Positions 9,685 to 21,075 of a stretch of DNA of 28,467 nt are shown here, piece after piece. A program made the translations under genes and the position numbers. Below the pieces are notes generated by a model. That model saw only the letters and a list, made by a program, of their open reading frames with translations. It did no database searches and had not been told where the DNA came from. Positions within the stretch are counted from its first letter, which is position 1. Each line of letters begins with the position of its first letter. The DNA is from an uncultured Ignavibacterium sp. GTDB taxonomy: Bacteria > Bacteroidota > Ignavibacteria > Tepidaquicellales > Tepidaquicellaceae. The DNA is taken from the NCBI GenBank assembly GCA_964602825.1, contig CAZRSU010000001.1, forward strand, positions 8,836 through 37,302, in the 5' to 3' direction.

Positions 9685-9713
9685 ATGTAAATTATCAAAT
9701 ATATATTTTTCTT

Positions 9714-9925
9714 ATGCCGTAGGCATCAAATGTTTGTAGATTCACAAAAACGTATTTTATTCTTATGCCGTAGGCATAAAACATTTGTAGAATTACGAAT
9801 ACATATTTCTTTTAATGCCGTAGGCATAAAACGTTTGTAGATTTGCGAATACATATTTCCCCGTATGCCGTAGGTATTAAACGTTTGTAGAATTACGAAT
9901 ACATATTTCCCCGTATGCCGTAGGT
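9714..9925 (+). repeat. Tandem REP-like array, 5 units, period 50-51 bp (ATGCCGTAGGCAT-N9-GTAG)
   Basis: Palindrome starts at 9714, 9765, 9815, 9865, 9915. Confidence 0.9.
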
Positions 9926-10005
9926 CTTGTACATCTGCCTTCCTGCTGAACATTCTGATTATTGGCTTTGAACCTCCGATATGAACCACTGATAATTTTA
10001 TTATT

Positions 10006-10071
10006 GAACTCCTACGGAGTTCCTTAGAAAAATAAAATCTTTTGCTATAATATTAAACTCCTACGGAGTTT
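10006..10071. repeat. Pair of 17-bp palindromes AACTCCTACGGAGTT, period 49 bp
   Basis: 10006-10022 and 10055-10071; a third copy lies at 20764-20780. Confidence 0.85.
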
Positions 10072-10099
10072 ATTTTACTTGTTCAAATATTGCAAGAAG

Positions 10100-10310
10100 C
10101 CCCATCGGGGTTCAATAATGTAGCATCATCCTGTAATGTTTTCCTGAACCCCATCGGGGTTCAATAATGTAGCATCATCGTATAATTTTTTTCCTGAACC
10201 CCATCGGGGTTCAATAATGTAGCATAATCCTATAATGTTTTCCCGAACCCCGTAGGGGTTCAATAATGTAGCATCAATATTATCATTACAACACAACCCT
10301 GTAGGAGTTG
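10100..10310 (+). repeat. Tandem REP-like array, 4 units plus 1 degenerate, period 49-50 bp (CCCCATCGGGGTTCAATAATGTAG)
   Basis: Units start at 10100, 10149, 10199, 10248; degenerate unit at ~10297. Confidence 0.9.
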
Positions 10311-10458
10311 AATATTCCATCTCGTGACGGCACGCATACCGCATTTATCATCTCGCTGACGCAAGGGCCAGGGCAAGCCCACCAGCTGCAAATATTTTTT
10401 CAAAAATTACAAATCACATTTCACAAATTACATACCACATATTACATTTTAAGCCATT

Positions 10459-10530
10459 ATGCCACAGGCATAAAACGTTTGAAGCCGGTGATATTATTAT
10501 TACAATTATGCCGTAGGCATAAAACGTTTA
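10459..10530 (+). repeat. Pair of ATGCCGTAGGCAT-family units, period 49 bp
   Basis: ATGCCACAGGCATAAAACGTTT at 10459 and ATGCCGTAGGCATAAAACGTTT at 10508. Confidence 0.8.
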
Positions 10531-10680
10531 TATTTTCGCTTAGTTCCTTTCCTCTCCGCTCTGTAAATCGGAAGTGAGCAGATAAAATATGTTGTAATAA
10601 AACAATGAAATAAGTAAGTTATAATTGTTACTTTTTAGTTTTAATTGAAACTCGCTTAATACAAAAAGTAAAAGATATAA

Positions 10681-12363
10681 ATGGCAAAGAAAAACGGAAG
10701 CGGGACCGAAGAACCTTTAGAAAAACAATTGTGGAAAGCAGCTGATAAGTTAAGAAAAAATATTGACGCTGCTGAATATAAGCACATTGTCCTTGGGTTG
10801 GTCTTTCTAAAATACATCTCCGATGCATTTGAAGAATTGTTTGCTAAGCTGAAAGCCGAAGAAGCGCAGGGAGCCGACCCCGAAGACAAAGACGAATACA
10901 AAGCCGAGAATGTTTTTTTTGTTCCACCTGTGGCACGTTGGAGTTTGTTGGTTTCGTATGCCAAACAACCTTCCATTGGAATTACAATTGATGCGGCCAT
11001 GGATGCCATTGAAGCTGAAAATCCATCATTGAAAGGTGTATTGCCAAAAGTATATGCCCGACAAAATCTCGACCCGACAAGTTTGGGCGAATTGATTGAC
11101 TTAGTTGGCAACATTGCACTTGGCGATACCAAAGCCCGGAGTGCCGATGTGCTCGGGCACGTTTTTGAATATTTCCTTGGTGAATTTGCCCTTACCGAAG
11201 GCAAAAAGGGCGGACAATTCTACACCCCACGGAGTGTTGTTGAATTGTTGGTTGAAATGTTGGAACCCTATCAGGGACGTGTTTTCGACCCCTGTTGTGG
11301 TTCGGGCGGCATGTTTGTGCAATCGGAAAAATTTGTAGAAGAACGAAAAGGAAGAGTAAACGATATTTCCATATACGGACAGGAAAGCAACCAGACCACA
11401 TGGCGTTTGTGTAAAATGAATCTTGCCATTCGTGGCATTGACAGTTCGCAGGTAAAATGGAACAACGAGGGTTCGTTTTTAAACGATGCACACAAAGACC
11501 TGAAAGCCGATTATATTATTGCCAATCCCCCCTTTAACGTGAGCGACTGGGGAGGCGATTTACTTCGCAAAGACGGACGCTGGCAATATGGCGTACCGCC
11601 AACCGGTAACGCCAACTATGCCTGGATTCAACATTTCCTTTATCATTTAGCACCCAACGGACAAGCCGGTTTTATATTAGCTAAAGGTTCGCTTACAAGC
11701 AAAACTTCGGGCGAAGGTGATATTAGAAAAGCATTGATTGAAAATAATTTGATTGATTGCATTGTAAACCTGCCTGCCAAACTTTTCTTGAACACACAAA
11801 TACCAGCCTCACTTTGGTTCTTAAGAAGGAACCGGAAAAAATTCCCCTCCGTTGGAGGGGTGTCCGCCGCGGGCGGACGGGGTGGTGCATTCCCCTCCGG
11901 CGGAGGGGTGCCCGAAGGGCGGGGTGGTGAAATCCTATTTATCGATGCCCGAAACCTCGGACATTTAATAAATCGCAGAACAAAAGAGCTTTCTCAAGAA
12001 GATATACAAAAAATTGCACAAACCTATCACTCCTGGAAATTCCCCTCCGATGGAGGGGTGTTCGCTGCAGGCGAACGGGGTGGTGCATTCCCCTCCGATG
12101 GAGGGGTGTCCGAAGGACGGGGTGGTTACAAAGATATTGCCGGTTTTTGTGCAGCCGTTCCAATTAATAAAGTAAAAGAACTGGATTATGTACTTACTCC
12201 CGGGCGGTATGTAGGTTTGCCGGATGATGAAGACGACTTTAATTTTAACGAGCGTTTCACAAACCTAAAAGCCGAACTGGAAGCGCAACTAAAGGAAGAA
12301 GAGCGATTGAATAAAATAATTGCAGAAAACCTGTCCAAAATAAAACTGAATGATGAAAAGTAA
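10681..12363 (+). CDS. hsdM: Type I R-M methyltransferase subunit, carrying two 87-bp in-frame repeat insertions
   Basis: LW.AADKLR, GQFYTP, motif [10 protein letters not shown], motif IV NPPF, LF.NT.IP..LW, C-terminal LTPGRYVG. Confidence 0.96.
11842..11928 (+). repeat. In-frame coding double-hairpin repeat dimer 1 (45+3+39 bp; [29 protein letters not shown])
   Basis: Read directly from sequence; length 87 = 29 codons. Confidence 0.92.
12040..12126 (+). repeat. In-frame coding double-hairpin repeat dimer 2 (45+3+39 bp; [29 protein letters not shown])
   Basis: Read directly from sequence; same architecture as dimer 1. Confidence 0.92.
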
Positions 12364-13192
12364 AAACAGCATTATTGCAGTAAAAGGTGTAGAAGTTTCA
12401 TTTCTTCAAACTAATCGGGAAGACTATATCTGCATTACAGATATTGCAAAATTTAAAAATCCCGAAGCCCCTGCCGACATTATCAAAAACTGGCTGCGTA
12501 CTAAAAACACCATTGAACTGCTTGGACTTTGGGAAAAGTTGCATAATCCGGATTTTAAACTGGTCGAATTCGACCAGTTTAAAAACGAAGCAGGGTACAA
12601 TCACTTTGTGCTGTCACCTCAAAAATGGATAGAAACGACAAATGCCATCGGTTTGCAATCGAAATCGGGGCGATATGGCGGCACCTTTGCCCATGTGGAT
12701 ATTGCCATGGAATTCGCCTCGTGGGTTTCGGTTGAATTTAAATTCTACCTGATTAAAGAATTCCAGTATCTGAAAAACCAGCAGGATAAAGAACTCGACT
12801 GGAATATTAAACGGAAACTCACAAAAATAAATTACCGCATACACACCGATGCCATAAAGGAGAACCTGATTCCGGGCTATCTTACCCCCCAGCAAATCAG
12901 TTACGTATATGCCAACGAAGCTGATGTGCTCAACATGGCACTTTTCGGCAAAACAGCAAAACAGTGGCGCGACGAAAACCCCGAAGAAAAAGGAAATATC
13001 CGCGACTATGCCAACGTATCCCAATTGGTTTGCCTGGCTAACCTCGAAAATCTTAATGCCGTTTTTATTATCGAAGGAATGCCCCAAAATGAACGCCTGC
13101 AAAAGCTTAACCAGATTGCTATAGGGCAAATGAGGATATTACTGCAAACCGATACCGCAAAATCGCTAAAACAAGGAGGTGAAAGTGAGTGA
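12350..13192 (+). CDS. KilA-N domain DNA-binding protein
   Basis: YI.ITDIAK, NWLR...TIE.LG.WE, SPQKWI, GRYGGT.AH.DIA.EFA.W motifs; overlaps the hsdM stop and hsdS start. Confidence 0.85.
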
Positions 13193-14348
13193 GTGGAAAG
13201 AGTACAAATTTTCTGATTTCGTTGAAATAAATCCAACCGTATCATTACCTGCGAATGAGAGTATTCCTTTTGTGGAAATGAAAGATTTGAATGAAAGCCA
13301 GAAGCATTGTTATCCAAGTTCTGAAAGATACAATAGGAATGGTTCTAAGTTCCAAAATAATGATACCTTGTTTGCACGGATTACTCCTTGTCTTGAAAAT
13401 GGGAAAATATGTAAAGTTACAGGATTAAAAAACAATTTTGGATTAGGCTCGACTGAATTTCTCGTATTCAGAGGAAAAGGAGGCATTTCTGATACGAATT
13501 TTGTTTTTTATTTAGCTCGCTGGGACGATGTCAGGTCTCATGCTGAAATTAATCTTGATGGAACTTCGGGAAGGCAAAGAGTTCCCAAAGCCTGTTTTGA
13601 TGATTTAATTATAAAGGTTCCTGCTGATTTCGGAGAACAACGCTCCATTGCCTCCATCCTTTCCAGCCTTGACGACAAAATAGAACTGCTCCACCGCCAA
13701 AATGCCACCCTCGAGAAAATGGCTGAAACGCTTTTTAGGCAGTGGTTTGTGGAAGAAGCGAAGGAAGAGTGGGAAAATACAAAAATTGGTAAAATTTTGA
13801 AGACAATATTAGGGGGTACTCCTTCTACAAACAAACCAGAATATTGGGATGGAATTATTCCATGGATAAACTCAGGAGAAGTAAACAATTTTAGAATACT
13901 AAAAGGGACTAAGTTTATTACAGAACTTGGTTTGAAAAAGTCGAACACTAAATTACTACCCAAAGGGACAACGGTAATTGCAATTACGGGAGCTACACTA
14001 GGGCAAGTTAGCTTACTTGAAATTGAAACCTGTGCCAATCAATCTGTAGTGGGTATTTTACCTAATGAAATTCTTCCAAAAGAATTCATATTTCTGTGGG
14101 TAAAATTAAAAATTAAAGAAATTATTCTAAGTGAAACAGGCGGAGCTCAACCTCACATTAATAAAAATGATATTAATGAAACTGATATAATCATACCTGA
14201 TCCTGATTATTTAAAAAAGTTGAAGGAACAAATAGAACCTCTTTTTGATAAGATAACAAAAAACAGTTTTCAAATAATAAAACTACAACAACTTCGTGAA
14301 TCATTGCTGCCAAAATTAATGAGTGGGGAAGTAAAAGTTGAAATTTAA
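13185..14348 (+). CDS. hsdS: Type I R-M specificity subunit (two TRDs); GTG start at 13185 preferred over 13179
   Basis: TRD1, conserved EQ..IA.IL..LDDKIEL....N.TLE..A..LF..WF, TRD2, LR..LLPKLMSGE; AAGGAGG lies 5 nt upstream of GTG 13185. Confidence 0.93.
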   Translation: MSEWKEYKFSDFVEINPTVSLPANESIPFVEMKDLNESQKHCYPSSERYNRNGSKFQNNDTLFARITPCLENGKICKVTGLKNNFGLGSTEFLVFRGKGGISDTNFVFYLARWDDVRSHAEINLDGTSGRQRVPKACFDDLIIKVPADFGEQRSIASILSSLDDKIELLHRQNATLEKMAETLFRQWFVEEAKEEWENTKIGKILKTILGGTPSTNKPEYWDGIIPWINSGEVNNFRILKGTKFITELGLKKSNTKLLPKGTTVIAITGATLGQVSLLEIETCANQSVVGILPNEILPKEFIFLWVKLKIKEIILSETGGAQPHINKNDINETDIIIPDPDYLKKLKEQIEPLFDKITKNSFQIIKLQQLRESLLPKLMSGEVKVEI

Positions 14349-14351
14349 TAT

Positions 14352-15344
14352 ATGGAAAAAGCATCTTCAGAAAATATCGAACTGTATTGTGTAAGAGCCG
14401 AATTCGGAACTTACACTAAACAATTTATTGATGGTAATTATGTTGCAATCGGTTGGTTACCGAAAAATGACCTTTCAGGAATCACTAGCCGTGACGAATT
14501 ATATCAATTGTATAAAAAGGAATATCCAAAGGATACCAGCAATGTGGTGATTGGTCAGCAAGTTGGGCAGATCGCACGTTTTCTCTTAGAAATAAAAGCA
14601 GACGATTTTGTGATAACACCTGCACAAGACACAGAATTTATTTATTACGGTATTATGGAAGAAAATGCATATTATTTTTCTGATGGTTCAGATGGATGCC
14701 CCTATCTACACCGTAAAAAAGTTAAATGGCACAAAGAACCCATTCGGAGAAGCCAATTTTCTGTTCCTTTTCAAAACACAATCCGTTCTTCGTTGACTGT
14801 TTTTTACATCAGCCATAAAAAGAACTTTTTTACAACGATTGGAAAACCTGACTTAATTCCTGACAGCGAAAAGAAAACGGAGTTCGATTATTACACATCT
14901 GTACTTAATCGAATTCTGGAACTGGATGACAAAGAATTTGAAATATTAATCACTCATATTCTAAACGCACTGGGTTTCGAAGGTTCGGAACACAAAGGTA
15001 AAGTGGGCGATGGTGGAGTGGATGCTACCGGTGAACTAAATGTGGCAAATATGGCCAAAATAAAGCTTTTTGTACAGGCCAAACGCTATAAACGTGATTC
15101 AAGAATATCGGCTAATGTAGTAAAAGCATTAAGAGCAAATATTCCTGCAGGAGGGCAAGGTGCATTTATTACTACTGCTGATTTTCAAAAGCAGGCAAAA
15201 GATATTGCGGTAGAACAGGGCTTTCCAAGAATAGGTTTAATTAATGGCGAACAATTGGTTGATATACTTGCAGATCATTGGAATGATATACCCGTTGAGT
15301 TTCAGGAAAAGTTATCTTTAAAAGTAGGATTAGTTCCAAATTAA
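14352..15344 (+). CDS. Mrr-family (type IV-like) restriction endonuclease with an extra N-terminal domain, possibly EVE/PUA-like
   Basis: C-terminal Mrr_cat motif FE.L...L..LGF...DGGVD...VQAKRY...G.FITT..F..A...IGLI.GE.L; the N-terminal domain assignment is inference. Confidence 0.8.
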   Translation: MEKASSENIELYCVRAEFGTYTKQFIDGNYVAIGWLPKNDLSGITSRDELYQLYKKEYPKDTSNVVIGQQVGQIARFLLEIKADDFVITPAQDTEFIYYGIMEENAYYFSDGSDGCPYLHRKKVKWHKEPIRRSQFSVPFQNTIRSSLTVFYISHKKNFFTTIGKPDLIPDSEKKTEFDYYTSVLNRILELDDKEFEILITHILNALGFEGSEHKGKVGDGGVDATGELNVANMAKIKLFVQAKRYKRDSRISANVVKALRANIPAGGQGAFITTADFQKQAKDIAVEQGFPRIGLINGEQLVDILADHWNDIPVEFQEKLSLKVGLVPN

Positions 15345-15345
15345 A

Positions 15346-18300
15346 ATGACCCGAATCACAGAAAATACTATCGAATCGTTTGCAATTGAGTTATTGGACA
15401 AACTCGGTTACGAATACATTTATGCTCCGAATATTGCCCCCGATGGTGAAACACCTGAAAGGGAAACTTACGAACAGGTTTTGTTGGTTGAACGTTTACA
15501 AAATGCCGTAAAACGCATAAACAAATACATTCCTGCCGATGCACAAACCGAAGCAGTAAAAGAGATTCAGCGCATTGCTTCACCCGAACTATTGGCAAAT
15601 AATGAGGCTTTTCACCGACTTTTAACCGAAGGTATTCCGGTTTCAAAACAATTAGATGGAAACGAACGGGGCGACCGTGTCTGGCTAATTGATTTTAAAG
15701 ATCCCTACAACAACGATTTTGTAGTTGCCAATCAGTTTACAGTGGTGGAGAACAACAATAACAAACGCCCCGATGTAATTTTGTTTGTTAATGGTATTCC
15801 GTTGGTGGTAATAGAATTAAAAAATGCAGCAGACGAAAATGCTACTATTCATTCGGCATTCAAACAAATTGAAACTTATAAAACCATAATTCCAACACTT
15901 TTCACTTACAATGGGTTTGTAGTAATTTCCGACGGATTAGAAGCCAAAGCGGGTTCTATCTCGGCGGGGTTTAGTCGTTTTATGGCGTGGAAGTCAGCCG
16001 ATGGAAAAGCAGAAGCATCGCATTTGGTAAGCCAGTTAGAAACCCTTATTTTGGGTATGCTCAATAAAGAAACACTGATTGACTTAATTCGTCATTTTAT
16101 TGTATTTGAAAAATCAAAACGAGAAGACCCCGAAACGGGAATTATAACAATTACCACCGTTAAAAAACTTGCAGCTTATCATCAATATTATGCTGTAAAC
16201 CGTGCTGTGGAATCCACATTACGAGCCGCCGGTTATTCCCCTCCCTCGGAGGGGTGGCTGAAAGCCGAGGTGGTAGAAGACCCGTATGGCATCTATCGCA
16301 ACGCTCAAAACTACTTCGATCTTCCATATAACCCAAAACTTAAAGAACGCGCACGGGCATTGCGTCAAGCCGGAAACTTAACGGAAGTACTTTTCTGGAA
16401 TCAGGTTAAAAACAAAAAATTTAAAGGTTATGACTTCGACCGTCAAAAAATAATTGGAAGCTACATAGTTGACTTTTATTGCAGCAACTGTAATGTAGTG
16501 ATAGAAATAGACGGGAGCAGTCATGATGACAAAGTAGATTATGATGCAGACAGAGATGCTTATTTAAGAAGCTTGGGGTTAGAGATTATTCATATTCCTG
16601 CAACAGATGTATTGCAGAGAATGGGGAGTGTTATGGATATGCTTTACGACCACCCCGCCCTAAAGGGCACCCCTCCAGAGGAGGGGAATGAACCACCCCG
16701 TCCGCCTATGGCGGACACCCCTCCAGAGGAGGGGAATATGGTGATGGAATCACCAGAAAGTTACGGTGTACCGGGTGTAAAAAAGCAACCTGTTGGCGAC
16801 CGTAAAGGGGGGGTAGTTTGGCACACACAAGGCAGCGGTAAATCGCTTTCAATGGTTTTCTATACGGGTAAAATCGTGTTGGCAATGGATAACCCTACCA
16901 TTGTGGTTATTACCGACCGCAACGATTTGGACGACCAGCTTTTTGATACATTTGCGGCATCTAAACAGTTATTACGTCAAGAACCGGTACAAGCCGAAGA
17001 TAGAAACCAACTGAAAGAGCTTTTAAAAGTTGTTTCGGGCGGTGTAGTTTTTACAACCATTCAAAAATTCCAACCCGATAATGGCAATATTTACGAATTG
17101 CTTTCCAATCGTGAAAACATTGTGGTGATTGCTGATGAAGCACACCGCACCCAATACGGATTTAAAGCCAAAACCATTGACGATAAAAATGAAAATGGCG
17201 ATGTAATTGGTAAAAGAATAGCTTACGGTTTTGCAAAATATATGCGTGATGCTTTACCTAATGCAACCTATCTGGGTTTTACAGGCACACCCATTGAAAA
17301 TACTGATGTAAACACCCCGGCCGTCTTCGGGAATTATGTGGACATTTACGACATTGCCCAAGCCGTTGAAGACGGGGCAACTGTCCGCATTTATTACGAA
17401 AGCCGTTTGGCAAAAGTAAACCTTAGCGAAGAAGGCAAGAAGTTAGTTGATGACTTGGACGATGAACTCGACCAGGAGGATTTAACCGATACCCAAAAAG
17501 CAAAAGCTAAGTGGACACAATTGGAAGCATTGGTTGGCAGCGAAAATAGAATTAGCCAGATTGCAAAAGATATTATAGAACATTTCGAGCAACGGCAATA
17601 TGTTTTTGAAGGCAAAGGGATGATTGTTACCATGAGCCGCCGTATTGCAGCAGATTTATACGAAGCCATCATCAAGCTAAAACCCGAATGGCATTCCAAT
17701 GAGTTGAACAAAGGTGTTATCAAAGTGGTAATGACTTCTTCATCGTCCGATGGTCCAAAGATTTCACGACATCATACAACCAAGGAACAACGCCGTACTT
17801 TAGCCGAACGCATGAAAAACCCGGATGATGAACTGAAACTCGTTATCGTTCGGGATATGTGGCTCACTGGTTTTGATGCACCATGTTTACACACCCTTTA
17901 CATTGACAAACCTATGAAAGGGCATAATTTGATGCAAGCTATCGCACGGGTAAACCGTGTTTATAAGGACAAGCCGGGCGGTTTAATTGTAGATTATCTC
18001 GGCATAGCATCCGATTTAAAAAAGGCACTTTCGTTCTATTCTGATTCAGGTGGAAAAGGCGACCCGACTATTTTACAGGAACAAGCAGTTCAATTAATGT
18101 TGGAAAAACTGGAAGTCGTTTCTCAAATGTTTAATGAATTCCCCTCCACTGGAGGGGTGGACAGCGAAACTGGACGGGGTGGTTTTAACTACGAAGATTA
18201 TTTTGCAGCCGAAACATCCAAAAAGCTTTCGATGATTTTAGCAGCCGAAGATCACATTTTAGGTTTGGAAGATGGCAAGAAAAGATACATAAATGAAGTT

Positions 18301-19095
18301 TCGGCATTATCAAAAGCCTTTGCAATAGCAATTCCGCACGATAAGGCAATGGATGCCAAAGATGAAATTTCATTCTTTCAGGCAGTAAAAGCACGATTAG
18401 CAAAATTTGACGGTACAGGTTCGGGCAAAACCGATGAAGATATTGAAACAACAATCCGTCAGGTAATAGACAAAGCATTGGTTACAGAAAAAGTAATTGA
18501 TGTATTTGATGCCGCAGGGTTAAAAAAACCCGACATTTCAATACTTTCAGAAGAATTCCTTCTGGAACTAAAGGGGATGGAACATAAAAATATAGCCCTC
18601 GAAGTATTGAAAAAATTACTCAACGATGAAATAAAATCAAGGGCTAAAAAGAATCTTGTAAAGAGTAAGTCCTTGATGGAAATGTTAGAGAACGCCATTA
18701 AGAAATACCATAATAAAATACTTACAGCAGCTGAAGTTATTGAAGAACTGATAAATCTGAGTAAAGACATTGTAGAAATGGATAACGAGGCCAAAGCAAT
18801 GGGGTTATCAGATTTTGAATATGCTTTTTATACAGCAGTTGCAAACAACGACAGTGCAAGAGAACTCATGCAAAAGGACAAATTGCGTGAATTAGCCGTT
18901 GTTTTGACAGAAACTATAAAACAAAATGCCTCGATTGACTGGACTATAAAAGAAAGCGTGAAAGCCAAACTTAAAGTTGCCGTAAAAAGACTATTAAGAA
19001 AATATGGTTATCCGCCCGACATGCAAATGCTCGCAACCGAAACCGTATTGAAACAAGCTGAAATGATTGCAAATGAATTAACAAATAAGGAGTAA
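15346..19095 (+). CDS. hsdR: Type I R-M restriction subunit with an inserted DUF559 cassette and a solo repeat
   Basis: RPD..L.VNGIPLV.IELK nuclease motif, YQYYAV, Walker A HTQGSGKS, DEAH, FT.TP, MWLTGFD.P, QA.ARVNR, C-terminal DWT..ES..A. Confidence 0.96.
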   Translation: MTRITENTIESFAIELLDKLGYEYIYAPNIAPDGETPERETYEQVLLVERLQNAVKRINKYIPADAQTEAVKEIQRIASPELLANNEAFHRLLTEGIPVSKQLDGNERGDRVWLIDFKDPYNNDFVVANQFTVVENNNNKRPDVILFVNGIPLVVIELKNAADENATIHSAFKQIETYKTIIPTLFTYNGFVVISDGLEAKAGSISAGFSRFMAWKSADGKAEASHLVSQLETLILGMLNKETLIDLIRHFIVFEKSKREDPETGIITITTVKKLAAYHQYYAVNRAVESTLRAAGYSPPSEGWLKAEVVEDPYGIYRNAQNYFDLPYNPKLKERARALRQAGNLTEVLFWNQVKNKKFKGYDFDRQKIIGSYIVDFYCSNCNVVIEIDGSSHDDKVDYDADRDAYLRSLGLEIIHIPATDVLQRMGSVMDMLYDHPALKGTPPEEGNEPPRPPMADTPPEEGNMVMESPESYGVPGVKKQPVGDRKGGVVWHTQGSGKSLSMVFYTGKIVLAMDNPTIVVITDRNDLDDQLFDTFAASKQLLRQEPVQAEDRNQLKELLKVVSGGVVFTTIQKFQPDNGNIYELLSNRENIVVIADEAHRTQYGFKAKTIDDKNENGDVIGKRIAYGFAKYMRDALPNATYLGFTGTPIENTDVNTPAVFGNYVDIYDIAQAVEDGATVRIYYESRLAKVNLSEEGKKLVDDLDDELDQEDLTDTQKAKAKWTQLEALVGSENRISQIAKDIIEHFEQRQYVFEGKGMIVTMSRRIAADLYEAIIKLKPEWHSNELNKGVIKVVMTSSSSDGPKISRHHTTKEQRRTLAERMKNPDDELKLVIVRDMWLTGFDAPCLHTLYIDKPMKGHNLMQAIARVNRVYKDKPGGLIVDYLGIASDLKKALSFYSDSGGKGDPTILQEQAVQLMLEKLEVVSQMFNEFPSTGGVDSETGRGGFNYEDYFAAETSKKLSMILAAEDHILGLEDGKKRYINEVSALSKAFAIAIPHDKAMDAKDEISFFQAVKARLAKFDGTGSGKTDEDIETTIRQVIDKALVTEKVIDVFDAAGLKKPDISILSEEFLLELKGMEHKNIALEVLKKLLNDEIKSRAKKNLVKSKSLMEMLENAIKKYHNKILTAAEVIEELINLSKDIVEMDNEAKAMGLSDFEYAFYTAVANNDSARELMQKDKLRELAVVLTETIKQNASIDWTIKESVKAKLKVAVKRLLRKYGYPPDMQMLATETVLKQAEMIANELTNKE
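16236..16736 (+). mobile_element. 501-bp in-frame cassette: DUF559 (Vsr-like PD-(D/E)XK) endonuclease domain flanked by inverted double-hairpin repeats
   Basis: Left unit 16236-16274 (+); right dimer 16649-16688 and 16692-16736 (-); core LPYNPKLKERAR.LR....E..FW, FDRQK.IG.YIVDFYC, VIEIDG.SH; 501 = 167 codons. Mobility is inferred. Confidence 0.8.
18139..18183 (+). repeat. Solo in-frame coding double-hairpin repeat in hsdR (FPSTGGVDSETGRGG)
   Basis: 45 bp; hairpin A intact, hairpin B partly degraded. Confidence 0.88.
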
Positions 19096-20835: not shown

Positions 20836-21075
20836 AAAACGTTTTATGCCTACGGCATAAAGAAAGAAGTAGTTCTCCGGCTACAAACATTTTATGCCTA
20901 CGGCATATTGAAATAACCTGAATTCTTTTTCTACAAACATTTTATGCCTACGCATAAAGAAAGAAGTAGTTCTCCGGCTACAAACGTTATATGCCTACGG
21001 CATAAGGAGGGAAAATGTAATCCTGAATCTACAAACGTTATATGCCTACGGCATAAGGAGGGAAAATGTAATCCT
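20836..21075 (-). repeat. Tandem REP-like array, 5 units, period 47-51 bp, inverted relative to 9714-9925
   Basis: ATGCCTACGGCAT at 20846, 20894, 20944 (1-nt deletion), 20991, 21042. Confidence 0.9.

Follow-up and report, generated by a model that had tools for sequence, protein, structure and literature searches.

In-frame dimers of a triplex-motif hairpin repeat as probable selfish insertions in two loops of the type I methylase HsdM

The window, a stretch of 28,467 nucleotides from an uncultured Ignavibacterium sp., holds a type I restriction-modification operon whose hsdM gene contains two G/C-rich blocks that are read in frame (Table 1). These blocks are probably selfish triplex-hairpin dimers that were brought in with the operon and survive, translated, in two indel-tolerant loops of the protein. 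Each unit of the repeat would comprise a perfect 7-bp hairpin (hairpin A), a hairpin of free sequence (hairpin B) and a G-rich mirror tail, a single strand of which would fold into a triplex. The mobile piece in this operon would be a dimer of 87 nt, one long unit followed by one short unit, which is also found as the right end of a cassette around a DUF559 domain in hsdR. Its copies would have inserted into two indel-tolerant surface loops of HsdM, or else have persisted in these alone. There they would simply be translated into disordered Gly/Pro-rich loops, as the unit spans a multiple of three nucleotides and its G/C-rich sequence is free of stop codons in all frames.

Table 1. The restriction-modification operon of the window and the repeat units located within it
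Feature	Position	Strand	Description
hsdM	10681-12363	+	560 aa; Pfam N6_Mtase 1.4e-104, HsdM_N 3.7e-25
Block 1 (dimer 1)	11842-11928	+	HsdM residues 388-416
Unit 1, long type, 45 nt	11842-11886	+	Hairpin A, 7-bp hairpin B, tail GGGGTGGT
Unit 2, short type, 39 nt	11890-11928	+	Joined to unit 1 by GCA linker 11887-11889
Block 2 (dimer 2)	12040-12126	+	HsdM residues 454-482
Unit 3, long type, 45 nt	12040-12084	+	Stem changes relative to unit 1 compensated
Unit 4, short type, 39 nt	12088-12126	+	Joined to unit 3 by GCA linker 12085-12087
KilA-N gene	12350-13192		Operon member
hsdS	13179-14348		Operon member
Mrr-like nuclease gene	14352-15344		Operon member
hsdR	15346-19095	+	1249 aa; Pfam HSDR_N, SWI2_SNF2, T1RH-like_C, DUF559; hosts DUF559 cassette and one solo unit
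Single unit, left end of DUF559 cassette	16236-16274	+	Other frame, SPPSEGW
DUF559 domain, in frame in HsdR	16336-16647	+	Residues 331-434; Pfam 1.3e-27; Vsr-like nuclease fold
Long and short dimer, right end of cassette	16652-16737	-	Read as TPPEEGN...
Solo unit in hsdR	18138-18183	+	FPSTGGV..GRGG

The operon consists of five ORFs, all of which are intact according to the ORF listing and Pfam analysis. HsdM possesses the domains HsdM_N and N6_Mtase, is encoded beside hsdS and hsdR, and has a predicted fold matching that of a known M subunit (PDB accession no. 3khk). SAM motif I (DPCCGSGG) and the NPPF motif were read intact from its translation. Both blocks are 87 nt long (a 45-nt unit, GCA and a 39-nt unit), are separated by 111 nt and are identical to one another at 78 of 87 positions, with a G+C content of 67-76% versus 41% in the window. 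Each adds 29 Gly/Pro-rich codons in frame, block 1 directly 5' of the codons for EILFIDA and block 2 directly 5' of those for YKDIAGFC. This architecture, with its spacing, its 29 residues per dimer and its placement before EILFIDA and Y.DI.GFC, had been proposed in an earlier sequence-only reading of the window; every detail checked holds and the positions are exact. That reading had also found unit 1 to be without stop codons in six frames, which is true of every hsdM unit and dimer. It had further judged the 502 aa that are left on removal of both blocks to be near the usual size of HsdM, in agreement with a modal ortholog length of 511-513 aa. An intein, an intron and translational bypass were each rejected as identities for the blocks, these being 29 codons in length, stop-free and devoid of any such motif.

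As single-stranded DNA, the hsdM blocks fold far better than shuffled sequences (z of -4.1 to -5.1, for Watson-Crick folding only). Of the nine positions at which the two dimers differ, four are in loops, four make up two compensated stem pairs (C-G to T-A, in the long and the short hairpin B alike) and one creates a G-T wobble; hairpin A and the tails are untouched. Because these differences fall in loops, compensated pairs and a wobble, and because translation of the unit elsewhere uses at least four frames, the conserved entity is judged to be the DNA structure and not the peptide.

Searches beyond the window identified the exact motif TTCCCCTCC-N3-GGAGGGGTG at more than 120 genome loci, with hosts among the Bacteroidota, Cyanobacteria, Clostridia, Patescibacteria, several proteobacterial classes, Verrucomicrobiota and others. 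The 122 full units share a constant build of hairpin A, TG, hairpin B and then (A/G)CGGGGTGGT, and the base preceding the unit is A in 106 of 118. The core of hairpin A is invariant in the eight copies of the window and in 195 copies elsewhere. Hairpin B is free in both sequence and length, giving units of 37-66 nt, and lies within a second loop of 14-40 nt. The tail, GGGGTGG, has no Watson-Crick partner. It is instead the mirror image of the purine arm GGAGGGG of hairpin A with the A changed to T, and this mirrored tail is perfect in 164 canonical copies. Among the variant types of hairpin A (4-5 in number) the tail is changed correspondingly with 0 mismatches: CCCCTTC/GAAGGGG is accompanied by GGGGTTG (three copies), CTCCTCC/GGAGGAG by GAGGTGG (three loci), CCCCTCT by GGGGTGT (one copy) and CCCTCTT by GGGTGTT (one copy). 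A mirrored arm of this kind is what would serve as an antiparallel purine-motif third strand, with G·G:C and T·A:T triplets here and A·A:T triplets also admitted in this class of motif. The mirror covariation, drawn from about ten variant copies and from sequence only, reads as the signature of an intrastrand triplex, not of a duplex or of a binding site for a dimeric protein. As the tail both mirrors hairpin A and covaries with it, the unit would be a triplex-motif repeat of the BoxC/PIT/TMECO kind and not a plain palindrome, and it may fold as a purine-motif intrastrand triplex in vivo.

Translation of the unit in other genes gives FPSxGGV, SPPxEGW/C, TPPxEGN or HPSxGGE according to strand and frame, with at least four frames in use. 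Stop-free spans of 150 aa or more enclose only 26 of the 122 units elsewhere; the other 96 appear to lie outside long ORFs. Restriction-modification genes account for six of the twelve annotated host ORFs (Type ISP, HsdR, N6_N4 MTase), and the housekeeping hosts include HemD, an MFS protein and a glycosidase.

Evidence that the blocks are insertions comes from the best 120 orthologs of HsdM (76-86% identity) in a search of 5.8 billion proteins. Most of these are 511-513 aa in length and empty at both sites, reading WFMNRNRTNGKFRNRSNEILFIDA at site 1 and YHNWRNPDGKYEDIAGFC at site 2; relatives from the same order (62-77% identity) and the solved homolog 3khk are empty too. Five or more extra residues are present at site 1 in 30 of the 120 orthologs and at site 2 in 41. 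In filled orthologs the same two loops contain one to four units, of either orientation, or unrelated hairpin repeats. DNA alignment of an empty locus (L121) with a filled one (L123) shows a clean 39-nt insertion at site 1, between GGAAAA and TTYAGAGAC. Since most close orthologs lack an insert at either site, the blocks are, on this comparison, insertions and not native protein sequence, as the sequence-only reading had supposed when setting them apart from conserved native loops. In hsdM of the window some native loop residues are gone beside the inserts, which accounts for the remainder of 502 aa compared with the 511-513 aa of orthologs.

The exact core occurs in hsdM at four of 82 loci (80 metagenome loci plus L121 and L123). 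All four possible occupancy combinations of the two sites are present among close relatives, and a tree of 119 orthologs contains at least nine changes between presence and absence of the triplex motif (TM) at each site. As this is a quick FastTree of very similar sequences with the insert columns left out, these counts stand for several events and are not exact. Taken together, the alignments and the tree indicate recurrent gain and loss at both sites, although part of the recurrent occupancy could reflect recombination between alleles and not independent insertions. The empty site 2 contains CCCC-GAT-GG, which resembles a hairpin A with the GAT loop of the site-2 units of the window. It was considered as a footprint or microhomology landing pad and rejected as a coincidence, other empty orthologs reading V/L/T-D-G and other filled orthologs having different loops.

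The positions of the inserts in the protein were determined with an AlphaFold model (AF2) built from 63 diverse homologs (pLDDT 88.5, pTM 0.85), which replaced an earlier, poor model from 31 near-identical orthologs (pLDDT 48). It matches the M subunit 3khk with a TM score of 0.84 on target. The sole internal segments with a pLDDT below 50 are residues 388-411 and 462-480, both of which lie within the inserts. In the model, site 1 is the turn of a beta-hairpin before EILFIDA, between strands 376-382 and 417-422, and site 2 is the loop leading from helix 439-453 to strand 490-494. Among 62 diverse homologs, site 1 varies from 10 to 38 aa and site 2 from 0 to 43 aa, whereas two control stretches barely vary. 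The model and these lengths place the inserts in disordered, indel-tolerant surface loops. The surface-loop location put forward from the sequence is thus borne out by low model confidence at the inserts and by variable loop lengths among homologs.

At least five other, unrelated hairpin families occupy the two loops in other orthologs. These include a family read as TVPEVLEGT, GGFENL repeats, an A/T-loop family with GGGGCAAATAA stems and a REP with a 20-bp stem; in locus L155, a canonical BoxC-like motif (CCCTCTCCC-TCG-GGGAGAGGG-CAG-GGTGAGG) is found in frame at site 1. Judged by these occupants, the two HsdM loops are general sinks for many families of hairpin repeats. That unrelated families fill the same loops favours a permissive-site filter, by which insertions survive only there, and speaks less for a target specific to one element; with the 5' flank being A-rich, some target preference is still conceivable. 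Neither the use of the loops as sinks for at least five unrelated hairpin families nor the mirrored, covarying tail had been part of the sequence-only reading.

The hsdR gene of the same operon carries the unit as well. Its DUF559 domain is bounded by a single unit and by a dimer in the opposite orientation, and in a contig of run X4 the solo unit further downstream is replaced by 16 other letters. The 45+3+39 build is shared by dimer 1 of hsdM and the right-end dimer of the cassette; their stems and tails are identical, and every loop differs. The hsdM blocks had earlier been proposed to be non-autonomous copies of the repeat flanking DUF559. Of this proposal the shared family stands, the comparison of builds, stems and tails placing both sets of repeats in one family; the non-autonomous part, with movement by DUF559 or any other enzyme, is not supported, as no target-site duplication was found and this genome shows no sign of activity beyond the operon and none of current mobility. 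The motif is without a match in either of the same-genus genomes and is present in one of 24 family genomes, and the operon is accordingly likely to have carried its repeats along; arrival of both together by horizontal transfer is the most likely origin.

How the copies came to be distributed within the operon allows two accounts. The first assigns the copying to ordinary host processes with no dedicated enzyme (template switching at stalled forks, or gene conversion among the structured G/C-rich repeats of the operon), with DUF559 as a mere passenger. We consider this possible but rather unlikely. It is in keeping with the confinement of all copies of the genome to 6.4 kb of one operon and with the structure of the unit: its ends are not terminal inverted repeats, and no target-site duplication beyond that of shuffled flanks was found among 112 solo units (196 offset/length tests, best z of about 3). 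The tandem unit number of one to four among orthologs is as expected of slippage, TM motifs are reported to cause local instability (PMC4666352), and 84 of 94 loci elsewhere are without a nearby DUF559. However, hairpin A and the tail are near-identical across many phyla and a nuclease gene is adjacent at 10 of the 94 loci, which points to a specific partner, and slippage fails to explain a first arrival 111 nt or 4 kb away or in opposite orientation. For change in copy number, and perhaps for spread, a serious alternative nonetheless lies in host slippage or template switching where a repeat is able to form a triplex.

In the second account DUF559 is a candidate for the enzyme that copies the repeat. 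The one in this operon is the sole DUF559 found in a search of the genome, and its three Y1_Tnp genes are located on other contigs. At the 10 loci mentioned, a DUF559 coding segment (53-71% identical) is found less than 200 nt from a unit. Among 38 metagenome loci with a whole hsdR, two have units in hsdM together with DUF559 in hsdR, none has units only, three have DUF559 only and 33 have neither, an association that involves few, related loci. It is tentatively suggested, and with more doubt than confidence, that the ends of the folded triplex-hairpin are recognised by the DUF559 nuclease domain within hsdR, which would copy them to new sites either by themselves or along with the cassette. 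If true, the arrangement would represent a novel type of mobile element, driven by a nuclease and guided by structure, which either favours restriction-modification genes or persists in them and reshapes the surface loops of their products.

The survival of selfish dimers in a gene that is still in use also has to be set against the possibility that the operon is decaying, with hsdM non-functional and the inserts tolerated without selection against them. The operon appears foreign to the lineage, and both inserts are flanked by losses of native loop residues (502 versus 511-513 aa), as decay would have it, but this explanation is improbable given that all five ORFs are intact and that the reading frame is kept by both hsdM inserts, by three insertions in hsdR and by the inserts of dozens of orthologs. 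The catalytic motifs are likewise intact, and comparison of hsdM with its orthologs gives a dN/dS of 0.05-0.08, which gauges long-term constraint and not constraint since insertion. The filled HsdM may well be an active methylase. A run labelled RNA-Seq (X2) gave figures equal to those of DNA run X1, and the two are probably the same data.

Retention of the inserts for a benefit to the host is very unlikely, whether this be structured DNA or RNA by which hsdM expression is tuned, a hot spot for diversification of the enzyme, or flexible loops that obstruct anti-restriction proteins. Repeated filling of the same two loops in a family of restriction-modification genes, together with the share of such genes (6/12) among annotated in-ORF hosts elsewhere, could be read in its favour. 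Yet the peptide is not conserved, with at least four frames and both orientations in use, unrelated repeat families fill the same loops, most orthologs are insert-free, and 96 of the 122 units elsewhere are outside stop-free spans of 150 aa or more.

Chance does not account for the copies. At this base composition, about 0.001 occurrences of the core CCCCTCC-N3-GGAGGGG would be expected in the 2.42-Mb assembly, and eight were found, all within this one operon and in frame, with four copies in hsdM and four in hsdR. A search for copies lost at assembly breaks gave one half-motif match less than 80 nt from a contig end, which is isolated, has no partner arm and is chance-like. Logan contigs produced by another assembler from two sludge-metagenome runs cover positions 11070-12582 and 11070-12328 with 0 differences; being contigs, they are blind to rare excision or copy-number variants in the population. 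An assembly artefact is excluded by the identity of these independently assembled contigs over the region. Proteins often contain Gly/Pro-rich linkers, and the assembly of G/C-rich repeats can go wrong, but the idea that the blocks are native low-complexity linkers of this HsdM lineage, or such an artefact, is hardly credible, being already refuted by the empty sites of most close orthologs and by the independent contigs, and at odds with the presence of the same DNA unit outside long ORFs in many phyla.

Comparison with known systems places the preferred explanation, that of selfish triplex-hairpin dimers brought in with the operon, beside several classes of small repeat. A scan of the window against Rfam gave no family, and a literature search with the letters of the motif returned only unrelated eukaryotic papers. 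No description of this cassette was found in the literature on DUF559 with repeats or mobility, nor was a paper found that reports triplex-motif repeats lying in frame within genes or having a link to DUF559. MITEs (Correia, ERIC, Nezha) are small dispersed elements that are sometimes fused in frame with host ORFs (PMC10969869). The present unit resembles them in being small, non-coding and dispersed with occasional in-frame fusion. It differs from them in that no terminal inverted repeats or target-site duplication were detected, and we know of no related DDE transposase for it.

With REP/REPIN sequences and their RAYT the unit has in common short, structure-conserved hairpins, a lack of target-site duplications, occurrence in arrays and a single repeat-flanked, nuclease-type gene as proposed mobiliser. 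The dimers described here are direct (head to tail), whereas REPINs are inverted pairs, and the associated gene is DUF559 (PD-(D/E)xK, Vsr-like fold) and not a Y1 transposase.

Rickettsia palindromic elements, reportedly described by Ogata et al. in 2000 and 2002, are selfish palindromes that are found in frame in unrelated protein genes, where they are translated as loops compatible with the protein fold. The units of this study behave alike, having inserted in frame at fold-compatible sites, and the precedent cited in the sequence-only reading is apt in this respect; as that reading had also remarked, the sequence families are unrelated, and the units are not members of the Rickettsia family. 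Rickettsia palindromic elements (reviewed in PMC10969869) are approximately 100-150 bp in length, encode a family-specific peptide and are confined to Rickettsia. In contrast, the units described here are 37-66 nt, use at least four frames without a conserved peptide, possess a triplex tail and are spread over many phyla.

Intrastrand triplex motifs of the BoxC/PIT/TMECO kind, which are said to have been treated by Hoyne and Maher in 2000, have been known for decades and are, to our knowledge, without known origin, mover or role. Like these, the unit is a dispersed G/C-rich repeat with a C-rich arm, a complementary G-rich arm and a mirrored second G-rich arm (class II purine motif), and has conserved arms, variable loops and both tandem and inverted pairs. 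BoxC, PIT and TMECO were described as intrastrand triplex motifs by Holder et al. 2015 (PMC4666352), in which TMECO follows the pattern CCCTCNCCC-N3-6-GGGNGAGGG-N3-GGGNGAGGG, is in E. coli 'always located intergenically' and was not found to be associated with mobile elements. The arms of the present unit are 7 nt long and read CCCCTCC, not CCCTCNCCC, and its second loop of 14-40 nt contains hairpin B. ITxF searches are limited to loops of 1-6 nt (PMC4666352) and would miss the present family, as its second loop exceeds this range. Unlike the intergenic TMECO, the units here are in-frame parts of genes and have a DUF559 cassette linked to them. On account of the 7-nt arms of other sequence and the long second loop with hairpin B, the unit would belong to a related family and not to TMECO itself.

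Several consequences follow for such repeats. The mirror covariation offers comparative evidence that conservation acts on the triplex itself, and the operon and dimer design shared with the sole DUF559 of the genome make this protein a testable candidate for the spreading enzyme. For annotation, Gly/Pro-rich blocks of 13-29 aa in restriction-modification proteins would be better regarded as repeat insertions than as domains or linkers. The allele series amounts to a natural experiment on which protein loops are able to absorb selfish DNA. What this operon adds to the BoxC/PIT/TMECO motifs is a probable relative that is translated within a working-looking enzyme gene and is accompanied by a dense series of filled and empty alleles.

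The dimer that fills the first of two surface loops of HsdM (dimer 1, 11842-11928) and the dimer at the right end of the DUF559 cassette in hsdR (16652-16737) are identical in their stems and tails. All five of their loops and linkers differ, namely (hsdM dimer first) GTT/TCT, GCG/ATA, GCA/TCA, GGC/TCT and GAA/TTTA, and loop turnover in this pair seems far quicker than random drift permits. The solo unit of hsdR was also compared with a low-depth contig of run X4, from a different sludge sample: across 18122-18184, sixteen other letters replace the 45-nt unit, and the contig appears to represent an allele or ortholog that lacks it.

At three genome loci (L009, L027 and L061), these units also flank DUF559 domains that are in frame within other restriction-modification (R-M) enzymes, the hosts being a Type ISP enzyme, an MmeI-like methylase-nuclease and another HsdR. 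R-M genes thus look to be preferred hosts of the cassette.

Hairpin arrays of a REP-like kind, distinct from the triplex-motif unit, flank the R-M operon on both sides in inverted orientation, with 102-nt arms that are 76% complementary; the operon may lie within a repeat-bounded island. Two genes are unusual additions within a type I operon (see table); in the orthologous operons of L121 and L123, their places are taken by other genes.

Repeat arrays and additional genes in and around the R-M operon
Feature	Position	Location or types
REP-like hairpin arrays	9711-10540 and 20837-21064	types ATGCCGTAGGCAT, CCCCATCGGGG, ACTCCTACGGAGT; period ~50 bp
KilA-N domain gene	12350-13192	between hsdM and hsdS
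Mrr_cat restriction endonuclease gene	14352-15344	between hsdS and hsdR

Among the HsdM orthologs, P0002 (639 aa) possesses no repeat inserts; instead, its catalytic region (LLVNMLEPY...AWIQH) is duplicated internally over 130 residues. At the second loop (site 2), ortholog L127 (G007:C308) has the sequence WRYSPSGEGKWEEY, which may be a decayed unit remnant with an SPPxEGW reading frame. Ortholog L155:872-2497 (metagenome contig Ga0007882_10022587) has other kinds of repeat, in frame, at both sites: a REP-like hairpin with a stem of 20 bp at site 2, and at site 1 a canonical BoxC/TMECO-like motif, CCCTCTCCC-TCG-GGGAGAGGG-CAG-GGTGAGG. The published location of TMECO-type motifs is intergenic (PMC4666352).
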